From Bacilli bacterium (GTDB lineage: Bacteria; Bacillota; Bacilli; JACDOE01): 64,000 nt of DNA. Numbering within the stretch: position 1 is the first letter of the stretch; each line of letters opens with the position of its first letter. The translations under genes were made by a program, and so were the position numbers. The notes below the pieces were generated by a model that did no database searches, was not told the origin of the DNA, and worked only from the letters and a program-made list of their open reading frames with translations. The DNA lies in the NCBI GenBank assembly GCA_041686735.1, contig JAWLDF010000004.1, positions 69,185 to 133,184 on the forward strand, read 5' to 3'. This document shows, piece by piece, positions 3,103 to 25,251 of this stretch.

Positions 3103-3891
3103 TTGCAAAAAAATGTGATTGATCATGTCGGGCGCAGGCTCAGCTTTTCTTTTCCGCCGCAGCGGATCGTTTCCCTGTGTCCCTCCATCACACGGACTTT
3201 ATTTGATCTGGGCCTGGGTCAACGGGTGCTGGGGAGAACGCAGTTTTGCATACATCCTGCCGGGGATGTAAAAAAGGCGGCTGTGGTAGGCGGAACCAAG
3301 CAGGTGAAATATGAACGGATCGATGAGATCCGTCCGGATTTGATCATCGCTGAAAAAGAAGAGAATCCGCGGGAAATGGTGGAGCGATTAGCCGATTCTT
3401 ATCCCGTCTATGTTGCGGATGTAGAGAATGTGGCGGATGCCCTTCATATGATCCGTGATCTTGGAGAAATCACGGATTGCAGAACGGAAGCGGATCATCT
3501 GGCGGATAAAATTGATCGTTTGTTTCGAACACTTCCTGATTTTTCACCACGAAAAGCGGCTTATTTTATCTGGCAAAATCCTTATATGGCAGCGGGAAAA
3601 AATACTTTTATTCACGATATGATGCAGTATGCAGGTTTGAGGAATGTGTTTGCTCATAAAAAAGAGAGATACCCGCAGGTTACGAAGGATGAAGTGCGTA
3701 AAGCTGCACCCGATGTCATTATTCTGTCATCGGAGCCATTTCCTTTTAAGGAATCACACAGACAGGAATTTTTAAAGGAATTGCCTAAGGGCACAAGCGT
3801 CCTGCTGGCTGACGGGGAAGTTTTCAGTTGGTACGGGTCGAAAATGTTGGATGCCCCGGATTATTTTATTGATTTACGTTCACGCATGTAA
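3103..3891 (+). CDS. Periplasmic-binding-protein-like protein (class III SBP, Fe-siderophore/cobalamin type, TroA/BtuF fold) with no signal peptide.
   Basis: 262 aa. The ...RIVSLCPSITRTLFDLGLGQRVLG... and ...DLIIAE..., ...PDVIILS... blocks are typical of ABC 'helical backbone' substrate-binding proteins. It has no N-terminal signal or lipobox and uses a TTG start. Confidence 0.5.
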   Translation: MQKNVIDHVGRRLSFSFPPQRIVSLCPSITRTLFDLGLGQRVLGRTQFCIHPAGDVKKAAVVGGTKQVKYERIDEIRPDLIIAEKEENPREMVERLADSYPVYVADVENVADALHMIRDLGEITDCRTEADHLADKIDRLFRTLPDFSPRKAAYFIWQNPYMAAGKNTFIHDMMQYAGLRNVFAHKKERYPQVTKDEVRKAAPDVIILSSEPFPFKESHRQEFLKELPKGTSVLLADGEVFSWYGSKMLDAPDYFIDLRSRM

Positions 3892-3945: not shown

Positions 3946-5319
3946 ATGGTTAGCGATCGTATTAAAAGTTATCTTATATTATCAATGGCTGCACTTTACC
4001 TGGTTCATTCTTTTTTACCGTTCCGTTTTTTGTATATCATGCTGGCTTTGATTACGATGGTCGTATTTGTCATCAATGTCCCCGGTACCCGTCCGGCTCC
4101 TAAATATTTTAGCCTTCTGATGTTTACCGTTGGTTTGATCATTCATATTCAAATGGGGCGGAGCCTTGACTTATGGATGGACAGTGTGGTCACCAATGTA
4201 CCGCTGATTACACTGATCATGCTGGTTCCGCTCATATCGATCCCTCTAAAAATGGGGGGATATATCAATTCGGTTCATGAGTACATGATTCGTTTGGCAC
4301 AGCGGCCCCGCAAATTGTTTATGGGAATCACTTTTTTTCTTTTTTCTCTCGGACCGGTGTTGAATCTGGGTTCGATTCGTCTGATTCATGAGATTGTGCA
4401 GGATTTGAACATGAAGAGTTCATTTCTGGCACGGGCCTATTTGACCGGTTTTTCAACCGTTATTCTGTGGTCACCCTATTTCGCGTCTGTGGCGCTGGTT
4501 TTGTATTACCTGGACATTCCCGTATCTGCCTATATACCGGTGGGATTGCCCCTTGCTTTTATGCAATGGATCATCGGCAATCTTATTTTCCGAATCATCG
4601 CATGTAAGAAGAAGGTTCCGTCGGCCACGGAGGAGAGCAATGCTGTTCCGGATAATCCCGTTTCCTCTTATCATCGTCGTCATATTCAGCAATTGGCCGT
4701 GTTGATTCTTCTGTTGATGGCGATTGTTTTATTGATGGAAACGTTGACCGGATGGCCGATGATGTTACTGGTCAGTCTGGTGGCCATCTTGTTTCCGCTG
4801 GTATGGTTATTGTTTGACCGCCGCTTCACGGAGTGGAAAACACATTTGGAACAGTTTCGTGATCAATCCGTTCCCCGTACCAACAATGAAATTGTGATGT
4901 TTATCAGTGCCGGAGTTTTCGGAAAAGCACTTACAGGAACAGTGGTGGCGGATATGATCAGTACAGCGGTACAACAGTTGTCCTCCGTATCGTTTCTTTT
5001 ACTGGCGCTGGCGATTGTTCTGGTCATGTTTGTTTTGACATTCATGGGGATCCATCCTATAGTGATCGTGATTCCATTACTGACCCAGATCGATCCTGTG
5101 ATTGCGGGAGCGACACCTGCAGCTCTGGCACTTGTGTTTATGCTGGCCTGGTCCATTTCTGCCGTATCCAGTCCGGTGAATCCGCTTAATCTCCTTGTGA
5201 GCGGATCGGTGAACGAATCAGCCATTCGAACCGGGGTCAAATGGAATGGATACTACCTTTTGTCGATGCTTCTAATAGGAATGGCGTATATCTATCTTAT
5301 CAATTCGTTTGCCGCTTAA
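3946..5319 (+). CDS. Polytopic integral membrane protein of unknown function (possible transporter).
   Basis: 457 aa with about 12 hydrophobic segments. I recognise no catalytic motifs. Confidence 0.45.
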   Translation: MVSDRIKSYLILSMAALYLVHSFLPFRFLYIMLALITMVVFVINVPGTRPAPKYFSLLMFTVGLIIHIQMGRSLDLWMDSVVTNVPLITLIMLVPLISIPLKMGGYINSVHEYMIRLAQRPRKLFMGITFFLFSLGPVLNLGSIRLIHEIVQDLNMKSSFLARAYLTGFSTVILWSPYFASVALVLYYLDIPVSAYIPVGLPLAFMQWIIGNLIFRIIACKKKVPSATEESNAVPDNPVSSYHRRHIQQLAVLILLLMAIVLLMETLTGWPMMLLVSLVAILFPLVWLLFDRRFTEWKTHLEQFRDQSVPRTNNEIVMFISAGVFGKALTGTVVADMISTAVQQLSSVSFLLLALAIVLVMFVLTFMGIHPIVIVIPLLTQIDPVIAGATPAALALVFMLAWSISAVSSPVNPLNLLVSGSVNESAIRTGVKWNGYYLLSMLLIGMAYIYLINSFAA

Positions 5320-5332
5320 AACTAAGAATAAG

Positions 5333-5385
5333 AAAAAAGAGTTTCCGTCTCACAAATGAAAACGGAAACTCTCTTTTTCTCTTTT
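5333..5385. terminator. Bidirectional intrinsic terminator.
   Basis: Stem GAGTTTCCGT/ACGGAAACTC flanked by an A-run and a T-run, located between convergent genes. Confidence 0.6.
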
Positions 5386-5393
5386 TCTCTATA

Positions 5394-5759
5394 CTATTTT
5401 TCTTTCAAGGACAGTAAGTAATCTGCAACAGCCGCTTCGTTACCGGGAACCAAACCTTTAGGCATTCCGCCTCGTCCGTTTTTCAGGATATCAACGATTT
5501 CATCTTTACTTAACGCTAGATTGGTTAAATCCGGGGCGGCCGGAGTACCGGTCAAATCGGTACCATGACAACTTAGACATTGTTGCATGTAATCTGGTAA
5601 CTCTCCCTCTGCGGATTGTGCGGTATCACCGCCTGCTCCTTCTGCTTGATTTGCGTTTTCGCCTGCAGTCTCAAGGTAATTCATTCCGACTACCCCGAGC
5701 AATACGGCAACAGCGAATCCAACCGCGAGTATAGAGAAAATGACTTTTACCGGATTCAT
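5394..5759 (-). CDS. cccA: Membrane-anchored cytochrome c (c-550/c-551 type).
   Basis: It has an N-terminal TM helix and a single CxxCH haem motif (CLSCHG). The start was chosen at the internal ATG with GGAGG 8 nt upstream; the longer ORF in the track has no RBS. Confidence 0.7.
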   Translation of the reverse strand: MNPVKVIFSILAVGFAVAVLLGVVGMNYLETAGENANQAEGAGGDTAQSAEGELPDYMQQCLSCHGTDLTGTPAAPDLTNLALSKDEIVDILKNGRGGMPKGLVPGNEAAVADYLLSLKEK

Positions 5760-5865: not shown

Positions 5866-6951
5866 TCAGCGGTTCTGAATCCGGCTGTGCCTGCGTGCCA
5901 GCAGGAGATATAATACTAAGATGATCACTTCGAGGATGAGACCGAGAACCGGCCAGGTCCGGGCAGAGTAGTAAAAGTGCGTAATATGATTGTCAAAGAG
6001 CATGATGGATAACAATCCGGAGAGAAGACCAGCCGGGATCAGAAACAACTTAATCCGTTCGTTAAAAATAATTTGGACACATTGCAGGATTCCGTACAAT
6101 GTCAGCCCCATTTTACTAAATAAAGTAGGCACCCAGAAGAAAACAATAATCAGATCGAGCCGGTCCAAAAAGTCCGTAATATTAATCTGTCTGACCAAAA
6201 GATAGCTGGGGTATGTCGTAAATTTGGCAACCACCGCACCCAACACCATAATGGAGGAGATCAGAATGGTCAGGATCAAAAAGATTCCCAGTCCGATTCC
6301 CCATATGACGGATCGGACGGTGTCGGCAGAAGGTTTAATCACACTGACAAATAACAGAATGATCACCCATTCTCCGATCCAGGAAAGTCCGGCAAATCCT
6401 GCTTTAAACACGGCAGGGAGGGTATTTGTCGAAAACAGGGGCATGAGTTTACCCGGTTCAATTTCGTTTAATAACAGAATTGGCAGCACAAGCATAACCA
6501 GAGCCATGACGGTAAAGTAAATATCATTGAACCGGGCGATTACTTCCAAGCCGAGCCAGGCCAAATAAATCAAACAGATGATACTGGCGAATACAATGAT
6601 CTGCGGAGGGGTTTGTTGTAACAGAGCCAATCCCGCAAAATCAGTAAAGCCGCGCAAATCCCGGATCAGAATCAGCATCAAAAAGAGGGCCATGATAACC
6701 GCAAAGATTTTGCTGCCGATTGTCACTGTCCCCTGTTGCGGGATGAGAAACCGGTATTGAGCCGGGCCCTTCCTGATTCCCAGTCCGATCAAAATCAATA
6801 ACGAGGTAAGAATCATCCAGATCGCCGCACTCATCCACACATAATGTAATCCAAAATCGAACATGGCCTGCGGAAGAATTATAAGAAAGGAAGTCATAAT
6901 ATAATTGGCAACCAGCAATGTGGTCTGTAAATTGGAAATTTGAATTTTCAC
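5866..6951 (-). CDS. Spore germination protein, B subunit (GerAB/GerKB family, APC-superfamily permease).
   Basis: 361 aa with 10 TM segments and typical GerxB length. It lies in an operon with GerxA and GerxC. Confidence 0.8.
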   Translation of the reverse strand: MKIQISNLQTTLLVANYIMTSFLIILPQAMFDFGLHYVWMSAAIWMILTSLLILIGLGIRKGPAQYRFLIPQQGTVTIGSKIFAVIMALFLMLILIRDLRGFTDFAGLALLQQTPPQIIVFASIICLIYLAWLGLEVIARFNDIYFTVMALVMLVLPILLLNEIEPGKLMPLFSTNTLPAVFKAGFAGLSWIGEWVIILLFVSVIKPSADTVRSVIWGIGLGIFLILTILISSIMVLGAVVAKFTTYPSYLLVRQINITDFLDRLDLIIVFFWVPTLFSKMGLTLYGILQCVQIIFNERIKLFLIPAGLLSGLLSIMLFDNHITHFYYSARTWPVLGLILEVIILVLYLLLARRHSRIQNR

Positions 6952-7166
6952 TTTAACACCATCCCGGACACTGGTGAAAACCAGTGATTCAGCATATCTA
7001 TGACAAAAAAGAGACTCAGATTCAGACCATAAATGAGGGAAACCCCTGCGGTCAGCATACTGAATAGAATGAAGGCCAGTCTTTCTTTGGGAAATTCATG
7101 CCACCTCTTTCTGCCGATGAAGAAAGTAACGGCTAACCCAACCCATATAATAATGGTTGTCAACAT
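6948..7166 (-). CDS. Small 2-TM membrane protein inside the ger operon (possible accessory D-type subunit).
   Basis: 72 aa, hydrophobic. It sits between GerxC and GerxB, with 4-nt overlaps on both sides suggesting translational coupling. Confidence 0.4.
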   Translation of the reverse strand: MLTTIIIWVGLAVTFFIGRKRWHEFPKERLAFILFSMLTAGVSLIYGLNLSLFFVIDMLNHWFSPVSGMVLK

Positions 7167-7174
7167 GGTGATAT

Positions 7175-8341
7175 CTACTCCCTTTTTCCGAATCCTTTAC
7201 TGGTAAATCCCGACTGGTCGATAAGAAACTTTACTTGAATGTTTGTATGGAGATCAGTCAATAGCTCACTCCACTTATCTTTCCATTGTTCCCAGAGGTG
7301 GTTGTCGGTTCGAAAAAGATGCAGTCCAAGACCGAAAGAATCTAAACCGCGTTTTAAACTTGCTTCAAGAACGGATTCGATCTGACTTTGAATTGTTGAC
7401 TCCAGATTCTTTTCGATTCTATGAATGATATCGGGATTTTCTAAATTAAGGAAAGTGCTGTCCTCAAGAATAAATCCGGTTGCCTCAACTGAAATATTGA
7501 AAACGGGTTTCCCGTTTTTAACGGTATGTTTCAAATTCATTTTGGAGGAATCAATTCTCACACCGATTTCCGTCTCATCTTCGAGCGGAAAGGTTGTTGA
7601 TTTTCCTTTCATTCTCTCAGTCAACCAAAAAACACCCATCGTTTGTTTGGCATCGGTGATCATGGATAGTCGATTTTCTTTAAAAAGTGCAACATGATGG
7701 ATTTGCAGTTCTTTTTTTTGTTCCCCGGGGTTATGATTATCCGTCGTTATCGTTTCCACGACAGGTAAAATCGGATCACTGCCCTGTCTTTCAAAGGCGT
7801 ATATAAAATCTTTCATCCTGATATTGATTCCCGACTTGGCAATCTCCCGCATCGCTTCGGCAGGCACACTTTCCAAATGAGGCTGTGAATTGAGAATGTC
7901 AAGAGCATCGCCTCTTGCTACCAGCAGATATGTCGTCAGGCGGGATTCAGGATATCTGGCAATCACGTCCATGATACTGCTGATTCCCTTTCTTGCAAAA
8001 TCTTCACCGATGACAAGTACTCTTTCATGGGCGAAAAAGAGCCGTCGAGACATTCTCATTTGCATCTTTTCATAGGCTTCACTTAGATTTCGACCGGTTT
8101 CACTATCCACATAAAAAGATTTGTCCCCTCCTGTCCCTCCCCCTCCTCCACCGGACCCTGCCCCGCCCATTTGCCCGGGCAGAGGAATTTGTGTCGATAC
8201 CCGGAAAAGTCCGTCTTCGGCTAAATCAAAACCTGAAGCGGCTACAATGGCAATGTCATTGATCTCAACACGATCCCAGCAGCCACTTAAGATTGTCATT
8301 GAAACCGATAGCATGATGGATATCAAGATGCGTTTTTTCAA
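7175..8341 (-). CDS. Spore germination protein, C subunit (GerAC/GerKC family lipoprotein).
   Basis: It has a signal peptide with lipobox LSGC followed by a Gly-rich linker. Length and position are typical of GerxC. Confidence 0.85.
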   Translation of the reverse strand: MKKRILISIMLSVSMTILSGCWDRVEINDIAIVAASGFDLAEDGLFRVSTQIPLPGQMGGAGSGGGGGGTGGDKSFYVDSETGRNLSEAYEKMQMRMSRRLFFAHERVLVIGEDFARKGISSIMDVIARYPESRLTTYLLVARGDALDILNSQPHLESVPAEAMREIAKSGINIRMKDFIYAFERQGSDPILPVVETITTDNHNPGEQKKELQIHHVALFKENRLSMITDAKQTMGVFWLTERMKGKSTTFPLEDETEIGVRIDSSKMNLKHTVKNGKPVFNISVEATGFILEDSTFLNLENPDIIHRIEKNLESTIQSQIESVLEASLKRGLDSFGLGLHLFRTDNHLWEQWKDKWSELLTDLHTNIQVKFLIDQSGFTSKGFGKRE

Positions 8342-9873
8342 GAGTCCTGCTCTCCTTTTGTGAGATTCTGTTGATTTTGAGGATAAAGGTCCCCGCTTTC
8401 TCGTTTCAAGTTACCTCCCACTACATGTTTGGGACGATATTTCATTGACCACCATGGTGCCCTGATGAATACATCTTTTAATTCATTGAGAGATAACGGG
8501 GCTACGGGTGCAAGATAGGGAACACCGAATGAACGTTGTTTGCATAGATGGGTGGTTAAAAGAATCAGTCCCACCAGAATCCCGAACAATCCCATTGTAG
8601 CTGCGAGAAGCATCATCGGAAACCGCAGAAGCCGGATGGATATCGCCAGGTTAAAACGGGGTATGGTAAAAGAAGCGATTCCGGTGATCGATACGATAAT
8701 GACCATGGGTGCGGATACAATACCGGCCTGAACAGCAGCCTGTCCGATAACAAGTGCACCGAGAATACTGACGGCCTGACCGATTGTCCTCGGAAGTCGC
8801 ACCCCCGCTTCCCGCAAAGCTTCAAAGGAAATTTCCATGATCAGGGCTTCAACAAAAGCCGGAAAAGGGATTACCTCACGACTGGATGCAACACTGAACA
8901 AAAGTGACGTTGGCAGCATCTCCTGATGATAAGTGGTTACTGCGATATAAATCGCCGGTAAAAACAAAGCAATAATGATAAAGAAGAGACGTAACCATCG
9001 TAAAAAAATAGAAATATAAAAGCGTTCGTAATAATCCTCACTTGCCTGCAACAGTTGCCAGAAGGTCGAGGGGATGATCAGTGAAAACGGTGTTCCGTCG
9101 AGCAAAATGGCAACCCGTCCTTCAAGCAGATTGGCAGCTACGGTATCGGGTCGTTCCGTATTTTGAATTTGCGGAAACAAGGACCACGGATTATCTTCAA
9201 TCAGTTCCTCAATATAACCGGTCTCCAGCACCCCGTCGATGTGGATGCGGTTGAGGCGATTTTCAATCTCTTTCAGTAATGTGGGACTGGCCAGTCCATC
9301 CACATATAAAATGGCCAGACTTGTATTTGTATAAGCTCCGACTTTCATTGATTTGATCTTCAGATTAGGGGTCCGTAATTTTCTTCGTACCATCGAGGTG
9401 TTAACCCGCAAATTTTCGGTAAAACCTTCGCGCGGACCGCGAATGGCGGTTTCCGTGTCCGGTTCGGAAACAGAACGTTGTTCTCCTCCCTTGGCGTCAA
9501 AGATGATCGCCTGATCATACCGGTCGATGAGAAGCACTGTATTGCCGTCGAGAATGTGACCGATCAATTCTTCCATTTTTTCAGTTTTATTTACCTGAGC
9601 GATGGATTGCATTTGTTCTTCCACATCGCGCAGAGTGTACCTGTGATCATCCTGTTCCGTCAACAGTTGATACAATGCGTTTATTTGAATGCTGTCCGTA
9701 TTGACCAGACCATCGATAAAAATCAGTTCTGCACGCTGTCCGTCAATCTGAAAGGCACGATAGACCACGTCCGTACTTTCAACGAACAAATTCTTGATGT
9801 ATTCTATATTTTTCACGATGCTGCGATAAATTTTTGTGTCTGCTTCCTTACCGGTGGAATTGCTTTTAGGCAT
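8338..9873 (-). CDS. Spore germination protein, A subunit (GerAA/GerKA family).
   Basis: It has a hydrophilic N-domain and a C-terminal 5-6 TM block. A-C-B gene order matches gerK. The start was moved to the ATG with GGAGGA 7 nt upstream. Confidence 0.8.
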   Translation of the reverse strand: MPKSNSTGKEADTKIYRSIVKNIEYIKNLFVESTDVVYRAFQIDGQRAELIFIDGLVNTDSIQINALYQLLTEQDDHRYTLRDVEEQMQSIAQVNKTEKMEELIGHILDGNTVLLIDRYDQAIIFDAKGGEQRSVSEPDTETAIRGPREGFTENLRVNTSMVRRKLRTPNLKIKSMKVGAYTNTSLAILYVDGLASPTLLKEIENRLNRIHIDGVLETGYIEELIEDNPWSLFPQIQNTERPDTVAANLLEGRVAILLDGTPFSLIIPSTFWQLLQASEDYYERFYISIFLRWLRLFFIIIALFLPAIYIAVTTYHQEMLPTSLLFSVASSREVIPFPAFVEALIMEISFEALREAGVRLPRTIGQAVSILGALVIGQAAVQAGIVSAPMVIIVSITGIASFTIPRFNLAISIRLLRFPMMLLAATMGLFGILVGLILLTTHLCKQRSFGVPYLAPVAPLSLNELKDVFIRAPWWSMKYRPKHVVGGNLKRESGDLYPQNQQNLTKGEQDS

Positions 9874-10029
9874 ATAAACGTCCTCCGCCGTTATCAATTT
9901 TCTTTCCTATTTTGTCCACTTGTACAGGGTTTATCCACCCGGGGACGATGTGAAACATTTAATCTTTTAAGGACGTCAATACTTTCAGATAGCAGAAATC
10001 ATATGCCAAAAGAATGAGGAGGAAAGGCA

Positions 10030-12348
10030 ATGGAGAAACGGAAGAGATCAGGCAAAATGTGGCTGGTTTCAGTACTGGCTGCAACCATGGCTTTCAGCGG
10101 TTTTTCATTTTCGCCCGGTGCAGCAGCTTCATTCAACAAAGACGAGGTATCTAAAATAGTAACCGCTGCAGAAAAGAAGGAGGAGATTACAAAAGAGGAA
10201 GCCATTCGGATCGTTAAGGAATTTATGGAGATTCCCGATTCGTATAAACTGGAATCTACTTCTTTCAGCAGCAACTGGTATCCGAAAAGGATGCCGGTAT
10301 GGCGTATCAATTGGGTAGAGCGACAGGGGGATTATAAACCGGTAAATCAATTATCCTTCGTGGTGGATGCCGAGAAAGGTTATGTCATTTCAATGGATCA
10401 CTATCGTTATACCGATGAACCGGCATCATTTCCACCGAAAGTAAGTACAGAAGAAGCGCAAAAAATCGCTGAAACGTATGTACAAAAAAATCTGCCGGAA
10501 TTCTTTGATAAAGTGAAGGTTAAGGTACAAAACACTCCCGATCTTATACCGCTTGACGGTCGCGTATTTTATGACATTGTTTTTGAACGGGTGGTCCATG
10601 ACAATATACTGTTTCCGGAAAATTTCATTCGCGTTAATGTGAATGGAAACGGGGAAATTACCAGTGTGTATTTTCACTGGGATTATGAAATCTCGTTCCC
10701 GGACGTTGAACACCGGATCAGCAGTGAAGAAGCGGAGAAGTTACTGAAAGAAACACTTGCCGTTCAAATGACTTATATCCGTCCATGGAGACAGGAAGCA
10801 TACGGACAGAATGATTCGGAATCTTCCCCGATCTATTTTGGATATCGTTATCCCGCAACCGGTCAATATTATGTAGATGCAAAAAGCGGGGTATTGCGGG
10901 ACATGTATGGTGAGGAAAAAGATGTGCCTGCTATTGCTGAGATAAAACCGCTGGTTGATCAACCTAAGGCAGATGAGCCTGCTCCGCTGCCACAGGAGAT
11001 CACAAGTGAACAGGCCGTCGACATAGTGACATCAGAATTTTCTATTAACGGGGATCTGGTCATGCAGGACACTCGTTATTACGACAGCTGGGGACGTGAC
11101 AAAATTTCGGTCTGGATGATAAACTGGGAAGCGCGGAGTGAAGATTCTCAGTATTTTAAATGGGTTCGGGCTGTTGTGGATGCCTCAACGGGACAAATTT
11201 TGGAGTTTTATAATGATGGCATGATAAAGACAGAAGATTCAGGGGATACCGGAAAAGATGAAGAGAAGATCAGTTATGATGAAGCTAAAAAAATAGCGAT
11301 CAAATCCATAGAAAAATTGAGTCCCCATTTGATGCATCAGGTATATATCGACGATTCCATGAACAATCATGACCTGATCAGGGCCCCTGAACAGCATTAT
11401 TTTCTGTATTTTAAACGGATTGTCAACGGACTTTCTCTTGATGATCAGGGAATTCGAGTCGGTGTGAACGCAAAAAGCGGTGAACTGACGAGTTTTGCTA
11501 TTGACTGGGATAAAAAAGACTATCCTGTGCCTCCGGAAGGGTTAATGAGTAAAGAACAGGCGTTGGATCTTATTTTGCAGGATGTGAATGTTGAATTGAC
11601 CTATTTCCAACCCTATCCGCGTTATGATGCTACTGGAGAACTCGATAAGGAACAAAGCTCAATCTATCTCGTTTATCGCATGATCAGTGATAACCGTAAA
11701 GGTGCATATTTCATTGATGCTCAATCGGGACAATGGCGAAGCTTAGAGACGGGAGAATATTTTCGAGGCGATGAAATTCCACAGGACATTGAGGGCCACT
11801 GGGCACAAAAAGAACTGGAATTAATGTACCGCTACAATGCATTTGAAATGGAAGACGGGTTGGTTCATCCTGATGAAGCCATTAAACGCGGAGAATTGAT
11901 TAAAATGCTGGTTCTGGCCGTGCACCAGGGGAATTATTATCCTGTTGATATGAATCAGGAAGCAGCCTTTAAAGATGTTGCGAGTGATTCAAAATACTTC
12001 TCTTACGTTCAGACTGCTGTTGCCCGTAACTGGATCGACACCGACAGTGATACGTTTAATCCGGAGGCTTCTGTTGACCGGGAAGAATTGGCAGTGCTGA
12101 TCACACGGGCGCTCGGTTATGGCAGTCTGGCCGACACGGAAGGAATTTTTTACATCTCCTTTGAAGATAGGGATCAAATCAAGGAAACAGGACATGTGGC
12201 CATTGTGAGCGGACTCGGGATCATGAAGGGGGACGGTCAACGTTTCCATCCCGACCAGACAGTGTCACGGGCCCAGGCAGCCGTAGCTTTTTATCGCTTT
12301 CTTGAAGCAAGAGCAAAGATGAGGTCTGACCAAACACCGACTTTTTAA
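10030..12348 (+). CDS. Secreted cell-surface protein with four N-terminal PepSY-like repeats and three C-terminal SLH (S-layer homology) domains.
   Basis: It has a signal peptide. Repeated modules read ...VWxINWxxRxxD...VVDAxxGxIxxxxxY.... There are three SLH-like motifs (...EGHWAQKELELMYRYNAFE..., ...FKDVASDSKYFSYVQTAVARNWID..., ...FEDRDQIKETGHVAIVSGLGIMKGDGQRFHPD...). Confidence 0.6.
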   Translation: MEKRKRSGKMWLVSVLAATMAFSGFSFSPGAAASFNKDEVSKIVTAAEKKEEITKEEAIRIVKEFMEIPDSYKLESTSFSSNWYPKRMPVWRINWVERQGDYKPVNQLSFVVDAEKGYVISMDHYRYTDEPASFPPKVSTEEAQKIAETYVQKNLPEFFDKVKVKVQNTPDLIPLDGRVFYDIVFERVVHDNILFPENFIRVNVNGNGEITSVYFHWDYEISFPDVEHRISSEEAEKLLKETLAVQMTYIRPWRQEAYGQNDSESSPIYFGYRYPATGQYYVDAKSGVLRDMYGEEKDVPAIAEIKPLVDQPKADEPAPLPQEITSEQAVDIVTSEFSINGDLVMQDTRYYDSWGRDKISVWMINWEARSEDSQYFKWVRAVVDASTGQILEFYNDGMIKTEDSGDTGKDEEKISYDEAKKIAIKSIEKLSPHLMHQVYIDDSMNNHDLIRAPEQHYFLYFKRIVNGLSLDDQGIRVGVNAKSGELTSFAIDWDKKDYPVPPEGLMSKEQALDLILQDVNVELTYFQPYPRYDATGELDKEQSSIYLVYRMISDNRKGAYFIDAQSGQWRSLETGEYFRGDEIPQDIEGHWAQKELELMYRYNAFEMEDGLVHPDEAIKRGELIKMLVLAVHQGNYYPVDMNQEAAFKDVASDSKYFSYVQTAVARNWIDTDSDTFNPEASVDREELAVLITRALGYGSLADTEGIFYISFEDRDQIKETGHVAIVSGLGIMKGDGQRFHPDQTVSRAQAAVAFYRFLEARAKMRSDQTPTF

Positions 12349-14505: not shown

Positions 14506-14889
14506 TTAAGCTGCTTTTCTTTGTATGATCCATGCATATAAAGAACGCCAGACAACAAACAGTACAAGATTAAACCCGATCGTAATCAGGGCAAATAACC
14601 AGTCAATCTCTCGATGCAGGTACATGGAACGGATGATTAACCCTGCAATCCCTGCAACAATCCAGGTCGTCGCAGCTTTATATGCTGCCCGGCCGATACT
14701 TTGAACGGCTTCGGGACGGAGTGCTTTCATCAGGGGTGCGACGATCAGCCAGCCGAGGATAAACGGAAGTGCCGTTTGAAAGATGTCTCCTGCCGAGAGA
14801 GACATTCCGTGATCAGCTCGTCCCATTAAAGCAAAAATCAATAATACGATAAGATCTCCGATCAAGAGAGTCCAGAGAATTCGTTGCAT
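14506..14889 (-). CDS. Small integral membrane protein (DUF3054-like).
   Basis: 127 aa with 4 TM segments. Confidence 0.4.
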   Translation of the reverse strand: MQRILWTLLIGDLIVLLIFALMGRADHGMSLSAGDIFQTALPFILGWLIVAPLMKALRPEAVQSIGRAAYKAATTWIVAGIAGLIIRSMYLHREIDWLFALITIGFNLVLFVVWRSLYAWIIQRKAA

Positions 14890-14927: not shown

Positions 14928-14963
14928 TACATGAAAAAACCATCGGTCATATGACCGGTGGTT
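14928..14963. terminator. Bidirectional terminator hairpin.
   Basis: CCATCGGTCATATGACCGGTGG palindrome flanked by A6 and T-rich tracts. Confidence 0.6.
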
Positions 14964-14984
14964 TTATTTTGTTCTGATTAAGCA

Positions 14985-15650
14985 TCATCTCGTTTGTTGA
15001 AGAAGGTTTCGTAACCATACAGAATGGCGGAACTCATCATGAGAAGCTCTGAAAAAACGATTGGTAATACGGGGAACATTGGACATGGCTGAAATTTCGC
15101 GATAAAACCGGCTCGCCTCCAGTTCATCCTGAATTCCCTGACGCAATCCTTCGCGATAGGTTCGCGGCAAAGATCCCTGTTGGACCCGCGGGCGACTTCC
15201 TGTAAGTTGAGTGTAGATACGAGTGAAACTATTATAATGTCGGATTTCATCCTGACGGATACTGAGAATGGTTTGACGGGCCTCCTGATTGGGTGCCAGC
15301 TCCGCCAGTCGTCTGTAATACTGGATGGCTTGATACTCCCCGTTGATGGCACGTTCAATATTTCGAATTAATTCCGGTGATACCGGTTGCATTCCGGGTC
15401 CCATTCCCTGACCGGGCCCGGGACCGAGCGTTCCACCGTAAGGACCGGTTCCCATTCCGGGTCCCATTCCCTGACCCGGGCCGGGGCCGAACATTCCACC
15501 GTAAGGACCGGTTCCCATTCCGGGTCCCATTCCCTGACCGGGCCCGGGACTGAACATTCCACCGTAAGGCCACGGTCCAACACCCGGTCCGAATCCGTCA
15601 GGAAATCTGCTGTATTGACCGGAAGATTCCTTTTTTCGATGTTTGGGCAC
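14985..15650 (-). CDS. Ferritin-like (rubrerythrin/DUF2202-type) domain protein with N-terminal Gly/Pro/Met-rich 21-residue tandem repeats; a candidate spore-coat-type protein.
   Basis: The N-terminal region reads GPGPGQGMGPGMGTGPYGGMF repeated three times. The C-terminus is a four-helix ferritin-like domain (...EYQAIQYYRRLAE...EIRHYNSF...ELEASRFYREI...HDEFRHSVWL). The start was reassigned to GTG with AAGGAGGG 7 nt upstream. Confidence 0.55.
   Translation of the reverse strand: MPKHRKKESSGQYSRFPDGFGPGVGPWPYGGMFSPGPGQGMGPGMGTGPYGGMFGPGPGQGMGPGMGTGPYGGTLGPGPGQGMGPGMQPVSPELIRNIERAINGEYQAIQYYRRLAELAPNQEARQTILSIRQDEIRHYNSFTRIYTQLTGSRPRVQQGSLPRTYREGLRQGIQDELEASRFYREISAMSNVPRITNRFFRASHDEFRHSVWLRNLLQQTR
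15396..15584. repeat. Three tandem copies of a 63-bp coding repeat, encoding the G/P-rich repeats of the ferritin-like protein.
   Basis: A near-identical 63-mer (GGGTCCCATTCCCTGACCGGGCCCGGG...GTTCCCATTCC) is seen three times head-to-tail. Confidence 0.8.
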
Positions 15651-15772
15651 AAATATTCCCTCCTTGTACTTAATCCTGCCCTGTGGCATGCCAATCAGGC
15701 TTGTAGCAAGGCAAATGTGCTATATCATATGACATGCTCTGGACTGCAGTGCATAGGAGGATGCCCGATTTT

Positions 15773-17047
15773 TTATGAATGTGTAGATGTTTTTATTTGC
15801 TCAACAGTCTGGCGACGGTAAAATAATATACTTCCTGCCGCACCGGATCCGCATACTGCTGCTGAAAGCAAAAAGGCACTTGCATAGGAGTGGGTCTGAT
15901 CCACCATCCAACCGGTGATAATCGGAGATATAAATTGCCCGATCCCAAAAAACAGAGTGACAAATCCCATCGCAACTGCCACCCGGCCTGAAGATACGTA
16001 ATCACCTACAACCACCATCATAATCGTGGGGACGGCCCAAAGTGAAGCAGCATAAAGGACGATTCCCGCAAACAGCCACGCCGGATGGACGGATGAGGCG
16101 AACCCGGCCAGAACAGCCGCCTGTAGGCTATAAACAATGATCAATGTTCTTATCCTTCCGATCCGGTCGGATATATGTCCCCACAATGATCCACTGAGTA
16201 TACTTACCATACCCGCAAGGGCGAACATCTGCCCCGCGGTGACTTCAGCGAACCCCCCGTCAAGCATTAAATAATCAACAATAAAAGTAGAAAAAATAAT
16301 ATAACTGAATCCCCAGGTAAGATAGATCAATCCAATTGCCCATATTTTCGGATTTCGGTAGACACGATCCTGTTTTGACTGTTCAGATGCTGTTGAAGTT
16401 CCGGTTTCCGGCTTTATGGATTCGTTGTTTTTCGATATGGTCACGCTTCTTTCGCCTTTAGGAGGATGTTTTAACCAGAATAAATTAAGCAAAGTGATCG
16501 CCAAAACGATGACTGCCAATATAAACCAGCTGATCCGCCAGCCCTGACCGTCCTGCAGGGTAACGATCCACGGAACGACCATTCCGCTGATGACGATCCC
16601 GATTCCCGAACCGGACATGGCGGTTCCCGTAGCCATCCCTCTTTTTTCAGGAGGAAACCATTCGGCGAGTAGTCCGAGGGAAGGAACATATGCTCCGCCA
16701 GCCCCGAGACCGATGATAAAACAGGCCGCCAGCGCGCTCCAGAAACCCTGGGCGGTAGCACTCCAGAACATCCCGGCTGCAATAAAAAATTGAAAGAATA
16801 CAATTACCCTTTTGTGGGTATAACGGTTGACAAAGTAACCTGACAGCATGGCACTGATCAGATATCCGAAAAATACCGCCGAGGCGACAATTCCGGTTTC
16901 ACTGTAGTTGAATTGCAAACCGTCTTTCATAAACGGTAAAATTGCACCAAAGGAAAAACGGCCGAATCCGAGACTGGCCAGTACTGCGAGTGTGGTCAAA
17001 ATAAGGATGATCCAGGCATAATTTCGTATACTGTTATGGTTTTGCAT
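15773..17047 (-). CDS. MFS transporter (oxalate/formate-antiporter-like subfamily).
   Basis: 12 TM segments and the MFS loop motif. The start was set at MQNHNS with GGAGTGGAG upstream. Confidence 0.75.
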   Translation of the reverse strand: MQNHNSIRNYAWIILILTTLAVLASLGFGRFSFGAILPFMKDGLQFNYSETGIVASAVFFGYLISAMLSGYFVNRYTHKRVIVFFQFFIAAGMFWSATAQGFWSALAACFIIGLGAGGAYVPSLGLLAEWFPPEKRGMATGTAMSGSGIGIVISGMVVPWIVTLQDGQGWRISWFILAVIVLAITLLNLFWLKHPPKGERSVTISKNNESIKPETGTSTASEQSKQDRVYRNPKIWAIGLIYLTWGFSYIIFSTFIVDYLMLDGGFAEVTAGQMFALAGMVSILSGSLWGHISDRIGRIRTLIIVYSLQAAVLAGFASSVHPAWLFAGIVLYAASLWAVPTIMMVVVGDYVSSGRVAVAMGFVTLFFGIGQFISPIITGWMVDQTHSYASAFLLSAAVCGSGAAGSILFYRRQTVEQIKTSTHS

Positions 17048-17229
17048 TTTTCTGTCTCCACTCCTCTTACACTGCAATGAAATGTGCAATTGATCGTATA
17101 ATTTTGTAATATTATAAATTTTAATACAAAAGTAGAGTTAAGGTAAAGACTGAGCGGAAAATAAAGTTGTCACGGAGAATTGAATCCGTTACAGTGAAAA
17201 GAAGGCTTCGCGAAGAAAAGGAGGCGGAC

Positions 17230-17913
17230 ATGAAACAGATTTTGCTTGTCGAAGATGAAAAAGTGCTGGCAAAAAACATCGCCTTTTTTTTAGAAAAAGA
17301 AGGGTATCATGTGGAAATGGCTTATGACGGGGAACAGGGGCTGAAGATGTTCTCTGAGAAACACTATGATCTATTGCTGTTGGACTGGAATCTTCCGCGG
17401 ATGGACGGTCTGGAACTCTGTCGTCGTATCCGTAAAGACTCGATGGTTCCGATCATCATCATTACCGCAAGAGGAGAAACGATGGATAAGGTGATCGGAC
17501 TGGAAGTCGGCGCCGATGATTATATTGTAAAGCCCTTTCATCAGAGGGAACTGCTGGCGCGTATTCATGCGATTTTTCGACGGGAGCAACGTTATCAGGA
17601 CGAGCCCACTCAATGTTTGACTTATGATGGGATCGAATGTATCCGTGAACAAATGATGTTGCGTTATAATGGAAACCAGGCGGAATTAACCGCAACGGAG
17701 TTCAAACTGGTCGATGCGATGATGTCGAGGCCGCAGCATGTTTTTTCGCGGGAATGGTTATTCGAGCACATCTGGGGAACGCAGGACGGGTATAGTGACC
17801 GGACCGTCGACGTCAGCATCAGTCGCCTACGCAAAAAACTATACGATCTGACCGGGCGAAAATATCTTCACGCTGTGCGGGGGATGGGATATCGTTTCGG
17901 GGGTGAACAATGA
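17230..17913 (+). CDS. OmpR-family response regulator.
   Basis: Receiver domain (LLVEDE...D...LLDWNLPRMDG...K) plus a winged-helix C-domain. RBS AAGGAGG. Confidence 0.85.
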   Translation: MKQILLVEDEKVLAKNIAFFLEKEGYHVEMAYDGEQGLKMFSEKHYDLLLLDWNLPRMDGLELCRRIRKDSMVPIIIITARGETMDKVIGLEVGADDYIVKPFHQRELLARIHAIFRREQRYQDEPTQCLTYDGIECIREQMMLRYNGNQAELTATEFKLVDAMMSRPQHVFSREWLFEHIWGTQDGYSDRTVDVSISRLRKKLYDLTGRKYLHAVRGMGYRFGGEQ

Positions 17914-19313
17914 ATATCCGGAACAGGCTGTGGCTCGTTTTTTCCCTGTTGTTTATTCTCGTTTGTTTGGGGCTGTATGGATTTATTGTTAAAACCTATG
18001 AAGAACGGGTATTGGCGGGGCAACGGGAAATCTCGATTACACAAGGTCAGGCGGTGGTGGAGCAACTGTCGGGAACTTACCCCCGATTTCCAGAGCGGAC
18101 CGAAGGCTATCTAAGTTTTTACAGCGATCGTCTTGACGCCCGTCTGCTGGTGCTGGACTATCAAAAAAAGGTGAGATTCGATAGTTTTGAAAAATTCACC
18201 CCGGGTACGCATTTGTCTCTTACAATTCTGGAGAAGGGCGGGGAGTTGCCGCGAACGGAATTTGTTCCGACCACAAATTACGGGTATGTTCAATACACTT
18301 TGTTCCCGCTTGGAAATGAGACGCCTGCCTCTTCCTTTTTACTGATGATTAAAGATGTCAATGTTCTGTACGAAGATATTCGTTCTTTTCAGTACTTGAT
18401 GATGGCTGTCATGGCCCTGGCCATCATGGTGTTTTTCTTGTTGAGTTTCTGGCTGGCAGCATGGTTTTCCCGACCGATTCACGATATTGTACGCCATTTG
18501 CAGGGGATTACACCGCAAAAACGTACTTTTACCATGGAATACAACAGGAAGGATGAAATTCAACATCTGGTCCGGGCAATTCGTCAGATGGTGGATCAAT
18601 TAAATCAGTATGAACTCAGGCAGCGGCAGTTTATCAGTGCATCTTCCCACGAACTGAAAACCCCTCTGACCACGATGCAGTTAATTTGTGAAAATCTGGA
18701 GCATGTCCGGGAAGACCCCGGACAATTCAGGGAATTTACGCAGGATCTGTTGGTGCAAACGGATAAGATGAAGAAGGTAGTGGAAGATTTATTACATATC
18801 AATCGCATGTGGGACAGGCCATTAAACCTCGATTACATCACCGGCGGGGAAATTAGGAATCATATAGAAAAACAGTTTCAACGTGTGCTTGACTCCCGCG
18901 GACTGTTTTTCCGTTTTACGATTGACGCTGATGCACATTTTGAAGCAGACTGGGAACTATTTTTTCATGGGGTGGATAATCTGGTAGCCAATGCGATTCG
19001 ATATTCTTCCGAGAACAAAGAAATCCACATCGGTGTTCAAAAAGATGGGGATACGGGTGAATCACTGTTGTTCGTATGTGATGAGGGAATCGGGATCGCC
19101 GAAGAAGATCGTCCCTATATATTCGAACCTTTTTACCGTTCGAAGCAGGCGATGGACTGGGACCGGGAAGGTACGGGACTGGGTCTGGTGATTGTCAAGT
19201 TAATGGCAGACCGGCACGGCGGGAAGCTGGAACTTGAATCTTCCGTCGGGAAAGGTACCTGTGTCCGTCTTAAGTTCGGTAACAAAATTGTTACGCAGCG
19301 GCAATTGCTGTGA
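17910..19313 (+). CDS. Sensor histidine kinase (HisKA/HATPase_c) with two TM segments and an extracytoplasmic loop.
   Basis: H-box SHELKTPLT plus N/G1/G2 boxes. It has a 4-nt overlap with the regulator. Confidence 0.85.
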   Translation: MNIRNRLWLVFSLLFILVCLGLYGFIVKTYEERVLAGQREISITQGQAVVEQLSGTYPRFPERTEGYLSFYSDRLDARLLVLDYQKKVRFDSFEKFTPGTHLSLTILEKGGELPRTEFVPTTNYGYVQYTLFPLGNETPASSFLLMIKDVNVLYEDIRSFQYLMMAVMALAIMVFFLLSFWLAAWFSRPIHDIVRHLQGITPQKRTFTMEYNRKDEIQHLVRAIRQMVDQLNQYELRQRQFISASSHELKTPLTTMQLICENLEHVREDPGQFREFTQDLLVQTDKMKKVVEDLLHINRMWDRPLNLDYITGGEIRNHIEKQFQRVLDSRGLFFRFTIDADAHFEADWELFFHGVDNLVANAIRYSSENKEIHIGVQKDGDTGESLLFVCDEGIGIAEEDRPYIFEPFYRSKQAMDWDREGTGLGLVIVKLMADRHGGKLELESSVGKGTCVRLKFGNKIVTQRQLL

Positions 19314-19407
19314 TACAAAACTTTGATACTTTATAATTGTAGTACAGAAGGATCAGCGCGCTTTTCCTGGTAAACAAAAACGATAAACGCTATGGAGGAG
19401 ATCAACC

Positions 19408-20004
19408 ATGAAATCAATGTTCAAATTAGTGCTGGTTATGCTCGCGCTCATGATGGTAATTACTGCATGTGGTACGGGGCCAAATGAATCCGGGAATGAT
19501 CAGGATCAAAACCAGGGGCAAACGGGAGAAGATCCGGTGGATGAAAATGATGTCAGTCCCACAGATGATGAAGAAGACGAGGGGACAACCCAAACGGTTA
19601 CTTTATATTTTTCCGACAATGAATTGATGAAAGTATATCGTGTGCAAAAAGAGATTACAGTGGCAGAAGGTGAGCAGGCAGAAGTAGTCGCACTTCAGGC
19701 CTGGATCGAAGGTCCGGATGAAGAAGATCTTACCAATCTGTTACCGCCGGATGTGGTTGTCGAGTATGTGGAGGATAAGGATGGCGTTGCCCATGTCAGT
19801 TTCTCACGCGAGATCTTAAATGCCAACCTCGGTTCTTCCGGGGAAGCATTCCTCATCACTCAGATCGTGATGATCATGGAGCAGTTCGGATATGAGCAGA
19901 CTCAGATTCTCGTTGAAGGAGAAATCGTTGAATCCTTACTGGGTCATGTAGAAACCGCAAAACCGCTGCAGGCACAGAATCCCGAAGATTTTGAGCAACG
20001 GTAA
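19408..20004 (+). CDS. Lipoprotein with an acidic low-complexity linker and a GerMN-like (sporulation/germination) domain.
   Basis: Lipobox ITAC, then a D/E/Q-rich linker, then a C-terminal domain resembling GerMN. Confidence 0.5.
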   Translation: MKSMFKLVLVMLALMMVITACGTGPNESGNDQDQNQGQTGEDPVDENDVSPTDDEEDEGTTQTVTLYFSDNELMKVYRVQKEITVAEGEQAEVVALQAWIEGPDEEDLTNLLPPDVVVEYVEDKDGVAHVSFSREILNANLGSSGEAFLITQIVMIMEQFGYEQTQILVEGEIVESLLGHVETAKPLQAQNPEDFEQR

Positions 20005-23020: not shown

Positions 23021-23440
23021 CTAGCCCTGGCATTGCGGGCAGAGCCCGTAGAACTCGATATTATGGTCGGATAAGCGATATCCGGACTCTTTTTCAATGG
23101 ATTTCATGTTAATTCCAGCCTCGAAATGGATATCATCGATCCGGCCGCACTTTTTACATAAAAGATGATAATGAGTGTGTTCAAGTACCTCGAAGCGCGT
23201 ACACCCTTCTCCGCAGCGAATTTCCCTTACAACGCCGATTTCTTTCAGAGATCTTAGTGTATTGTAAACCGTGGCAAAACTCATATTTGAATATTCGTCC
23301 ATAAGCTGGTCATGAATTTGTTCGGCTGTGGGATGATCAAGTTCTTTCAATACCTTAATGATCGCCACCCTTTGCGGAGTTACACGAATCTGATGATCTT
23401 TCAACAACTGTACAATTGATTCTGTTTCTGGATGGGCCAC
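23021..23440 (-). CDS. Fur-family metalloregulator (PerR/Fur-like).
   Basis: 139 aa with a DNA-binding helix (...PTAEQIHDQL...SFATVYNTLRSLKEIGVV...), a regulatory His cluster (HTHYH) and structural CxxC...CxxC (CKKCG...CPQC). The 'PerR/Fur-like' call rests on its divergent position relative to peroxiredoxin and glutaredoxin-like genes; I cannot tell PerR from Fur or Zur by sequence alone. Confidence 0.75.
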   Translation of the reverse strand: MAHPETESIVQLLKDHQIRVTPQRVAIIKVLKELDHPTAEQIHDQLMDEYSNMSFATVYNTLRSLKEIGVVREIRCGEGCTRFEVLEHTHYHLLCKKCGRIDDIHFEAGINMKSIEKESGYRLSDHNIEFYGLCPQCQG

Positions 23441-23547: not shown

Positions 23548-23850
23548 TTGCGAATTGTAAAGAGAATACTTTTTATGGTTAAAATGAATATGGAAGGCTG
23601 TTGTTTATCCATGGAACCTGTAACGATCTATGTCACGGAAGGTTGTGGCAGTTGCCGGCAAATGAAAGAGTTATTGACCAGTCGCGGAGTGTCGTACATA
23701 GAAAAAAATACAACGACGGATCCCGGATTGATGGATGAGTTGAACCGACTGGGTTCATCAACCGTCCCGACGGTGGTTTTCGGGGAGCATATCGTCATCG
23801 GATTACGACCCAATCTCATGAACCGACTACTGGACGAAGCCGGATTATAG
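23548..23850 (+). CDS. Glutaredoxin/NrdH-like small redoxin. The start codon is uncertain (23548, 23584 or 23611).
   Basis: It has a thioredoxin-fold redox motif (YVTEGCGSCRQMKELL) and a ...TVPTVVFGEHIVIG... segment typical of glutaredoxin-like proteins. Confidence 0.5.
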   Translation: MRIVKRILFMVKMNMEGCCLSMEPVTIYVTEGCGSCRQMKELLTSRGVSYIEKNTTTDPGLMDELNRLGSSTVPTVVFGEHIVIGLRPNLMNRLLDEAGL

Positions 23851-23943
23851 GATGAGTGCAACTTTTGCAGGGATCGCAGCATTGAGACCGATCCTTTGCA
23901 AATACAATAATCTCTGTATTCCAAATAAAGGAGGATGAAAAGA

Positions 23944-24426
23944 ATGCCAAAAGGAGCTACTGAAACAAAGACGCTCAAAGTTGGCGACAAGGCTCCCGAC
24001 TTTACGTTGAAAGCTCATGGCGATCGCACGGTTACTCTTAGCGATTACCTGGGCAAGAAAAATGTATTCATCGCATTCTACCCCTTAGACTGGACCCCTG
24101 TCTGAGGCGCGCAGATGCCTTCATACGAGGACGATCTGTCCAAGTTTGAAGAGTATGATACCCAGGTTCTGGGTATAAGTGTAGATAGTATTCCCAGTCA
24201 TGAAGCATGGCAAAAATCACTGGGAGGAATTTCCTATCCTCTGTGCTCCGACTTCTGGCCCCACGGTGAAGTTGCACAGAAGTACGGTGTATTACGCGAT
24301 GAGGGAATGACCGAACGGGCCCTGTTTGTCATTGACAAAGAAGGTGTTGTCCGCTTTATCGATGTTCATCCCATCGATCAGCAGCCGGATAACGAAGAAA
24401 TTTTTGAAGTGCTTCGTAAACTGTAA
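23944..24426 (+). CDS. Peroxiredoxin (AhpC/TSA, Bcp/PrxU-like) that is a candidate selenoprotein. An in-frame TGA at 24103-24105 replaces the peroxidatic Cys.
   Basis: RBS AAAGGAGGA. The N-terminal half ...KAPDFTL...[13 protein letters not shown][TGA]GAQMP... is the PxxxTxxC peroxiredoxin motif with TGA exactly at the C position. The same frame continues for 107 more codons of typical Prx sequence (...VLGISVDS...HEAW...[10 protein letters not shown]...), which the track calls as a separate ORF (24115..24426). A hairpin at 24112-24138 lies 6 nt after the TGA. Confidence 0.6.
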
Positions 24427-24485
24427 AACATACATGAGCGGCTGTTTCCCCTTTTCCGAAGGAAGGCCGTAAGGATAATCGAAAA

Positions 24486-24549: not shown

Positions 24550-25251
24550 ATGGAAATGTCGAGAAAAGCCATTCCTTATACACCTAACGATAAACATTTA
24601 CATGAGATGAACATAGGGATTGTTTCTACTGCCGGAGCCCATTTAAAAGATCAAGAACCTTTCAGTGAGGATCCGACAACCGGCGATTTAACTTATCGCA
24701 TCATCCCGGGTGACGTCGACAGTGCCGATTTTCATGTAACCCATGCTGCACCAAAAGAAGAATATGACACAAATGAGCCGATGAAGGATATCAATACCAT
24801 TTTTCCAATCGACCGCTTGCGTGAACTTGCGGAAGAGGGATACATCGGCGGGCTGGCCGATCAGCATTACTCGATGATGGGTTTTGCGATGAAATTAAAG
24901 CGCTTACAGGAGGAAACGATTCCAGAGGTTGTAAAAAAAGTTGTTCGTTCCAAAGCGGACGGAGTCATTCTTACAGCCGGCTGACCTCTCTGTCATCGCA
25001 CTGTAGTTACAGTGCAAAGAGCGATTGAAGCTCAGGGAATTCCCACGGTTTTGATCACACTGGACCCCCATCAATCGGGGTTGATGCGTCCGCCTCGGGC
25101 CATTCATCCGAAGGGATTTCGTTTCGGTCACTCACTGGGAAAACCGGGTGATCGCGAAATGCAGATGAAAGTATTAAAAGCATCCCTGGAACAGCTCACT
25201 ATCCGTCAGGAACCCGGACAGATCCATGAGCTGGATTTTCCCGGCTATTAA
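24550..25251 (+). CDS. Selenoprotein-B family protein (GrdB/PrdB-like, PF07355-type) that is a candidate selenoprotein. An in-frame TGA at 24982-24984 lies in a UxxC motif.
   Basis: The two track ORFs 24550..24984 and 25012..25251 are in the same frame, separated only by the TGA. The fused product reads ...DINTIFPIDRLRELAEEGYIGGLADQHYSMMGF...VILTAG-U-PLCHRTVVTVQRAIEAQGIPTVLI..., which matches from memory the pattern of D-proline/glycine reductase selenoprotein B, where Sec sits in a TAGUxxCHR context. The hairpin CACTGTAGTTACAGTG begins 13 nt after the TGA. RBS AAAGGAG. Confidence 0.5.

Follow-up and report, generated by a model that had tools for sequence, protein, structure and literature searches.

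A probable late-sporulation, YhjR-type ferritin-like protein with a lineage-specific repeat tail in a Bacilli bacterium

The 64,000-nucleotide stretch of DNA analyzed here, hereafter the window (positions 69,185 to 133,184 of the forward strand of contig JAWLDF010000004.1, Bacilli bacterium assembly GCA_041686735.1), carries on its minus strand, at 14985-15650, a gene for a 221-residue protein in which a Gly/Pro/Met-rich tail encoded by three tandem 63-bp units precedes a ferritin-like domain. We consider it probable that the product is a YhjR-type, coat-associated di-iron protein expressed in the mother cell late in sporulation and endowed with a lineage-specific disordered tail, a reading in which we infer expression timing, coat location, domain chemistry and tail role alike. 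The fold, the family and the link to sporulation are already known in outline, to which the 3 x 63-bp Gly/Pro/Met tail adds no more than a lineage-specific variant. A counterpart of the locus, L001 (Logan SRR34348018), has the gene order of the window, aligns with it at 87% mean column identity over the gene and its flanks (nucleotide alignment), and encodes a protein, P0002, that is 79% identical to the window protein.

The protein carries a predicted di-iron ferritin-like domain

14985..15650, minus strand: coding sequence, 221 aa (open reading frame [ORF] list; identity to database protein P0001; 7/4/40 codon-position bias against L001)
14988..15383, minus strand: predicted four-helix di-iron domain, residues 90-221 (Pfam; AlphaFold2 [AF2]; ligand pattern)

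The protein matched the Pfam Rubrerythrin family (PF02915) with 45.3 bits, the gathering cutoff being 22.8, and an AF2 model built on a 15-sequence alignment displayed four helices spanning residues 92-117, 122-150, 165-189 and 193-219 with pLDDT values of 93-99; over residues 90-220 the pLDDT was put at >97. All six ligands expected of a di-iron site can be assigned (E105, E135, H138, E176, E206 and H209); each helix contributes one or two of them, and both halves of the domain show E-x29-ExxH spacing. Of 151 family representatives, 111 retain the EEHEEH pattern, the window protein among them. Two tyrosines located at ligand +7, Y112 and Y183, do not vary across the 15 aligned sequences. An earlier, sequence-only reading of this DNA had proposed a ferritin-like, rubrerythrin-type four-helix di-iron domain and had named structure prediction as a possible refutation; the Pfam score, the spacing of the ligands and the ferritin-like four-helix bundle returned by AF2 all uphold that proposal.

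Two better known types of ferritin-like protein were considered and rejected. The window protein is not a true rubrerythrin, as there is no cysteine in its 221 residues and therefore no rubredoxin-like FeS4 domain with its two CxxC pairs. Nor is it a manganese catalase of the CotJC type, the score against Pfam PF05067 (Mn_catalase) reaching 11.6 bits for a cutoff of 27; the earlier grouping with CotJ, of which CotJC is a Mn catalase, was thus abandoned. Foldseek searches of the PDB returned 2fzf, DPS-like proteins, bacterioferritins and 2qqy. Rubrerythrin, symerythrin, bacterioferritin and DPS-like proteins share only 15-24% identity with the window domain and are devoid of a low-complexity N-terminal tail.

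A sigmaK-type motif precedes the gene and is enriched across the family

15723..15750, minus strand: sigmaK-type motif composed of AC (15749-15750), a 17-nt spacer and CATATGATA (15723-15731), identical in L001
15710..15766, minus strand: conserved upstream block enclosing the putative promoter, 55/57 nt identical to L001 (nucleotide alignment)

The consensus of promoters recognized by B. subtilis sigmaK is AC-16/17-CATA---TA, which AC-N17-CATATGATA fits. The leader between the conserved block and the ribosome-binding site (RBS) has diverged from that of L001, and no sigma70-like site was found upstream of the ferritin-like gene. Relatives of the protein are encoded by 547 stretches of species-representative genomes, the best 80 of which were used for all locus-level counts; these originate from Bacillaceae, Paenibacillaceae, Thermoactinomycetaceae and Clostridia such as Dehalobacter and Sedimentibacter, lineages that we take to be endospore-forming without exception. 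When scored within 260 nt upstream of the family genes, the strict motif was found to precede 28 of the 80; these upstream regions read on their reverse strand gave 1/80, and a control set of 464 other ORFs gave 5 (Fisher p = 6e-21). Thus, the family is associated with a sigmaK-type promoter. The motif was also present upstream of the gene for P0006, a family member discussed below. We read the element in the window as a putative sigmaK-type mother-cell promoter, called from its motif. The link to sporulation suggested by the sequence-only reading, along with its proposal to look upstream for a sigmaK or sigmaE promoter, is supported by the conserved motif, by the family-wide enrichment and by a GerA-type operon in the host.

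This germinant receptor operon (gerA/gerAC/spore permease) occupies positions 5866-9897 of the minus strand, and the window also encodes a Germane-domain protein. The MnmA protein of the window shares 82% identity with its counterpart in a 'Bacillaceae bacterium' metagenome-assembled genome (MAG) and about 75% with those of Microaerobacter, Effusibacillus, Tepidibacillus and Paenibacillus. Together, the MnmA identities and the gerA operon and Germane genes point to a deep-branching, spore-forming member of the Bacillales as the host.

Relationship to B. subtilis YhjR

YhjR of B. subtilis (BSU10610, UniProt O07572) is a 145-aa protein of COG1633 listed as 'spore coat protein, ferritin-like superfamily' under sigmaE/sigmaK control (PMC3533761 supplement). 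It was assigned to Pfam Rubrerythrin and to the inner coat layer (PMC7725329), where its localization is SafA-dependent (PMC9319509), and its gene is SigK-regulated, apparently as part of one operon with csp3/yhjQ (PMC9484137). Compared by description, YhjR and the window protein both harbor a Rubrerythrin/COG1633 domain of about 130-145 aa, both are placed under mother-cell sigma control (sigmaE/sigmaK from the literature for YhjR; the sigmaK-type motif of the gene and of its family here), and YhjR and the window family are alike distributed among spore-forming Bacilli and Clostridia. They differ in that YhjR lacks a long tail, whereas the window protein extends to 221 aa owing to an 89-residue repeat tail.

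A domain profile run against a 90%-clustered protein collection retrieved 1145 proteins. Among the best 120, from which lengths and names were read, most are 135-155 aa long and are named only 'ferritin-like domain-containing protein' or 'rubrerythrin'; a YhjR label was absent from the names of the family cluster members. The canonical family of about 145 aa from Bacillaceae and Paenibacillaceae (P0016, P0068, P0109) is 41-50% identical to the window protein over the whole domain, and shares with it the six ligands, the two invariant tyrosines and the promoter type. This canonical clade is distinguished by two conserved cysteines (xCY in helix 1 and ExCP in a loop) and a DEQET motif. The window protein, in contrast, belongs to a clade without these two cysteines in which Y111, L161 and DELEA are found in their stead, and itself has no cysteine at all and a repeat tail. 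A scan of metagenome contigs with a 20-mer derived from a yhjR cloning primer, ATGGATAATTTTAAATTAGA (PMC9319509), yielded 23 matches, all in unrelated genes, and neither the short primer-derived YhjR peptide MDNFKL nor a guide RNA-derived peptide matched any of the family members compared.

A gene neighborhood reminiscent of yhjQ-yhjR, in which a DUF326/Csp3 gene adjoins the ferritin-like gene, occurs at 3/80 family loci (L027, L063 and L061). The DUF326 genes concerned, of the Csp3/YhjQ copper-storage type, encode 19 cysteines and lie at 3406-3735 (minus strand) in L027, 3405-3734 (minus strand) in L063 and 5055-5402 (plus strand) in L061; their hosts are two Metabacillus species and one Salipaludibacillus. 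In our judgment three adjacencies are more than chance would produce, given that a genome usually carries about one member of the family, with the proviso that L027 and L063 are from the same genus.

Gene model

15658..15665, minus strand: ribosome-binding site AAGGAGGG (direct reading; identical in L001)
14936..14965, minus strand: intrinsic-terminator-like hairpin and T run in the gap from the stop codon to the DUF3054 gene (arms conserved in L001)

Translation is taken to start at a GTG codon (15648-15650) and to end at a TGA codon (14985-14987). The GTG is spaced 7 nt from the preceding RBS, AAGGAGGG, and database protein P0001 corresponds exactly to the GTG-started, 221-aa form. The ORF track places the start of the gene at an ATG at 15689. 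In L001 both the GTG and the RBS are conserved, and the upstream ATG runs into a stop (ATG ACA TAA), in agreement with the earlier proposal of a GTG start with a good RBS. The ATG start of the ORF track and three overlapping ORFs derived from the repeat are wrong annotation. The latter had been described as spurious ORFs of the opposite strand. That they are by-products of the stop-free, GC-rich repeat is corroborated by the substitutions that separate the window from L001 in the domain, which, counted in the frame of the ferritin gene, number 7/4/40 at codon positions 1/2/3; the strand, however, was right only for 15387..15821, which is on the plus strand, 15355..15573 and 15368..15694 being other frames of the same minus strand.

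The ferritin-like gene is flanked by genes for an MFS transporter (15773-17089) and a DUF3054 protein (14506-14889), all three on the minus strand. Given the hairpin and T run located 3′ of its stop codon, it looks monocistronic.

An imperfect 63-bp repeat encodes a fast-changing tail

15384..15650, minus strand: disordered tail, residues 1-89, consisting of a basic head, PKHRKKESSGQYSRF, and a Gly/Pro/Met/Tyr-rich region (AF2 pLDDT; composition)
15513..15575, minus strand: repeat unit 1, PWPYGGMFSPGPGQGMGPGMG
15450..15512, minus strand: repeat unit 2, TGPYGGMFGPGPGQGMGPGMG
15387..15449, minus strand: repeat unit 3, TGPYGGTLGPGPGQGMGPGMQ

Tandem Repeats Finder (TRF), from which the units above were set in codon register, detected a single array in the region, at 15382-15569, with a period of 63, 3.0 copies, 91% matches, no indels and a score of 320. 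The repeat is genuine and goes well beyond what chance would yield, yet it is imperfect: pairs of units are identical at 54-56 of 63 nt (86-89%) and at 15-18 of 21 aa, the longest peptide occurring three times is the 11-mer PGPGQGMGPGM, and one 18-mer occurs twice. The sequence-only reading had announced three perfect 21-residue repeats located N-terminally to the ferritin-like domain. The tandem array of three units and its position relative to the domain both stand, but the repeats are not perfect, the 21-mer quoted for them, GPGPGQGMGPGMGTGPYGGMF, being found 0 times, and the DNA coordinates given (15396-15584) were about 10-15 nt off.

Over residues 1-89 the AF2 pLDDT was mostly below 50. 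The tail consists of 36% Gly, 19% Pro, 10% Met and 4.5% Tyr, with no His or Cys, and harbors three copies of MGPGM (M-x3-M) and one Tyr per unit. Its glycines recur at lags 2, 4 and 6 (17-19 of 25-27 glycines) and rarely at lag 3 (4/26), so that a collagen-like G-X-Y repeat of the BclA type was rejected, the Gly period being 2 and not 3.

A full-length search found the same tail elsewhere only in P0002. There, the repeat comprises one full unit and the first third of a second (about 1.4 units), after which comes a differing sequence, GPGIGPGTGPGPGGYYPNPQ. The copy number of the repeat is thus variable, as had been foreseen, with about 1.4 units in a 79%-identical relative and three in the window. 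Judging from these sequences, the tail changes faster than the domain.

Tails are similarly heterogeneous across the family. A subclade profile searched against 1.84 billion representatives gave 1307 matches, and tail statistics were gathered on 144 representatives with an N-complete domain. Tails of at least 30 aa were present in 51 of the 144 and are mutually unrelated in sequence. A Gly/Tyr/Pro-rich N-terminus, which the sequence-only reading had taken for a hallmark of some spore-coat proteins, is not supported as a hallmark of the family, as only about a third of the representatives have a tail of this length. The pooled composition of the tails of at least 30 aa was 11.8% Pro, 8.7% Gly, 8.6% Gln, 7.9% Tyr and 7.3% Met, the last compared to 2.7% in the domain, and Met made up about 9% or more of 13 of the 51 tails. 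Repeat-type tails include HGEMDHGQMDHG (P0176), DMDRDMDMDM (P0178), RRPMMERE (P0172), MQTAPMQGTLGQM (P0182), PEMPGMPGM (P0275), GQMAMPxxPY (P0297) and GMGMGPGMGMG (P0003/P0006); other tails are rich in Tyr and Pro, many of them without Met. No description of hypervariable, often Met-rich tails in this family was found in the literature searched. Separately, P0176 (L107, 1053-1808) displays about 12 tandem HGEMDHGQMDHG-type repeats rich in Met, His and Asp ahead of its ferritin-like domain, which presumably resemble the Cu-binding MDH repeats of CopA/PcoA; the strict sigmaK motif was not found upstream of its gene.

Proposed role and alternative explanations

We propose that a late mother-cell promoter of the sigmaK type would drive a monocistronic sporulation gene, the 221-aa product of which may be deposited in the spore coat by analogy with B. 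subtilis YhjR. The C-terminal 132 residues of this product are predicted to fold into a ferritin-like bundle with an intact di-iron carboxylate site, which would most likely oxidize Fe(II) or reduce O2/H2O2, acting as a ferroxidase or a rubrerythrin-like peroxidase, and thereby shield the spore surface. The tail would be the evolutionarily labile part of the protein, expanding and contracting through recombination or slippage between the 63-bp units. It could serve as a flexible anchor or spacer through which the enzyme domain becomes embedded in the coat or cross-linked there, the one Tyr of each unit being open to cross-linking, and its methionines might bind soft metals or soak up oxidants.

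A number of observations weigh against this assignment. Counted over the window alone, the sigmaK-type motif occurs 4 times for 5.05 +/- 2.0 occurrences in shuffled sequences, such that the promoter argument rests on position, conservation and family enrichment; the strict motif is absent from 52/80 family loci, and not every sigmaK-dependent gene is a coat gene. While yhjR pairs with yhjQ/csp3, the window gene has no adjacent csp3/DUF326 or other coat gene, and across the 80 family loci no conserved neighbor genes were found beyond lineage-specific synteny. Orthology to YhjR is indirect given a comparison made by description, and some genomes harbor COG1633 paralogues. Iron binding and activity are predictions for the members of the family, and no close relative with a solved structure was found, the best profile match being 9viw (E = 2e-11). 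Finally, no ferritin-like gene was found within the 13 kb examined of L082 (GCA_017656255.1), a syntenic but more distant MAG, indicating that the gene is dispensable. The DUF3054 and MFS genes of L082 are only 164 nt apart (8936-9099), with no recognizable remnant of the ferritin-like gene or its promoter in the gap, and the difference between the two genomes fits insertion and deletion alike.

One alternative holds that the Met-rich tail is a Cu(I)/soft-metal module and that the protein works alongside Csp3/YhjQ and the copper enzyme CotA to handle copper in the mother cell or the coat, instead of serving solely as an iron or peroxide enzyme, a reading compatible with a coat location. Met and Met/His repeats of CopA/PcoA, CueO and Ctr1 bind Cu(I), and the Met-rich Cu-binding segments of CopA/PcoA (repeats), CueO (insert) and LAB laccases (C-termini) are, like the tail, flexible, repeated, of low complexity and borne by a metalloprotein. 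The tail of the window protein, in contrast, is dominated by Gly and Pro and has no His, and the domain that carries it is of the di-iron and not the multicopper kind. What makes the copper reading attractive is the recurrent Met enrichment of family tails, in unrelated repeat types, together with the Csp3 association seen at 3/80 loci; further in its favor are the three MGPGM motifs of the window tail, the Cu and Ag binding of flexible Met/His-rich laccase termini (PMC12723717), and the reported co-expression of yhjR with csp3, with a proposed aid to Cu delivery to CotA (PMC9484137). However, no copper genes were found in the 64-kb window, the window tail lacks both His and Cys and is moderate in Met (10%), many tails of the family are rich in Tyr and Pro and free of Met, and Met-rich tails are not significantly confined to the Cys-less clade (Mann-Whitney p = 0.1). 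The methionines may equally be sacrificial antioxidants or merely be tolerated in a low-complexity region. On balance we regard this explanation as unlikely. We are similarly doubtful of its extension to the family, according to which independently recurring Met-rich tails would mark the sporulation ferritin-like clade as coat components capturing Cu(I)/soft metals or oxidants, the tail feeding or shielding the di-metal site.

Very unlikely, in our view, is a second alternative in which the protein has no spore role and is a vegetative or stationary-phase iron-detoxification or oxidative-stress protein of the Dps/bacterioferritin/DPS-like kind, with its basic N-terminus functioning as a Dps-like DNA-binding tail. 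The best structural matches (mini-bacterioferritin, DPS-like, thioferritin and Dps), an N-terminus starting with PKHRKK, the 16% Arg content of the domain, and the presence 8 kb away of a cluster comprising a Fur-family regulator and a peroxiredoxin would all suit such a protein. They are outweighed by the conserved sigmaK-type motif upstream with no sigma70-like promoter found, by a family-wide enrichment in this motif that would be unexpected for a general stress ferritin, by the restriction of close relatives to lineages that we presume to form endospores, and by the mere 5-22% identity to Dps and bacterioferritin structures.

Lastly, packaging in a protein nanocompartment as an EncFtn-type encapsulin cargo, to which weak matches (TIGR04535, 31.5 bits; NF058679, 29.7 bits; Pfam EncFtn-like, 16.4 bits) and the PDB hits 5n5e and 2e0z (encapsulin-associated ferritins) might point, is scarcely credible and was rejected on family thresholds and for want of a supporting genomic context, given that the scores are far under the respective curated cutoffs of 125, 90 and 27 bits, that the matches span helices 1-2 only of what is here a complete four-helix bundle and not a two-helix EncFtn, that a Pfam scan of window ORFs of at least 150 aa uncovered no shell gene, the neighbors being the MFS transporter and DUF3054 genes, and that the C-terminus, LRNLLQQTR, lies within helix 4 and leaves no free targeting peptide.

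Other features of the window

Two adjoining genes on the plus strand are candidate selenoprotein genes, as judged from in-frame TGA codons. The first (23935-24429) encodes an AhpC/TSA peroxiredoxin in which a TGA (24103-24105) occupies the position of the peroxidatic Cys (FYPLDWTPV[U]GAQM); with this codon read as Cys it scores 133 bits against Pfam AhpC-TSA, and a hairpin is found about 14 nt downstream. It may be a selenoprotein gene or else a pseudogene. The second (24550-25251), a possible further selenoprotein gene, encodes a GRDB-like protein (PF07355, 36 bits) with an in-frame TGA at 24982-24984 (..VILTAG[U]PLCHRT..), after which the frame is open for 89 more codons and a 7-bp hairpin begins 16 nt past the TGA. 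The pair is flanked by genes for a Fur-family regulator (23021-23440, minus strand) and a glutaredoxin (23548-23850, plus strand). The window showed no tRNA-Sec, selA or selB.

Adjoining the GerA operon, a gene at 10030-12348 (plus strand) encodes a protein of 772 aa that contains SLH domains along with YcdB/PepSY repeats; the operon and this gene are each conserved in L082. That genome (82% MnmA identity) is also without the two-component system and Germane-domain gene (window 17167-20004) that flank the MFS gene. ORFs at 3946-5319 (plus strand, 457 aa), 43041-44309 (minus strand, 422 aa) and 49526-50362 (minus strand, 278 aa) had no Pfam match at E <= 1e-5, and one at 38253-39275 (plus strand, 340 aa) had none at E <= 1e-4.

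Implications

Ferritin-like proteins of the YhjR type are conserved among spore formers, and the locus described here offers a clean sigmaK-type promoter with comparative support. Related genomes form a natural series, from one without the gene (0 copies) through one with about 1.4 units of the repeat to one with 3. The hypervariable and often Met-rich tails of the family suggest roles in metal capture, antioxidant defense or coat anchoring; were the doubtful proposal of metal- or oxidant-capturing tails to prove true, there would be a mechanistic tie between the YhjR family and the spore-coat copper pathway of Csp3 and CotA.
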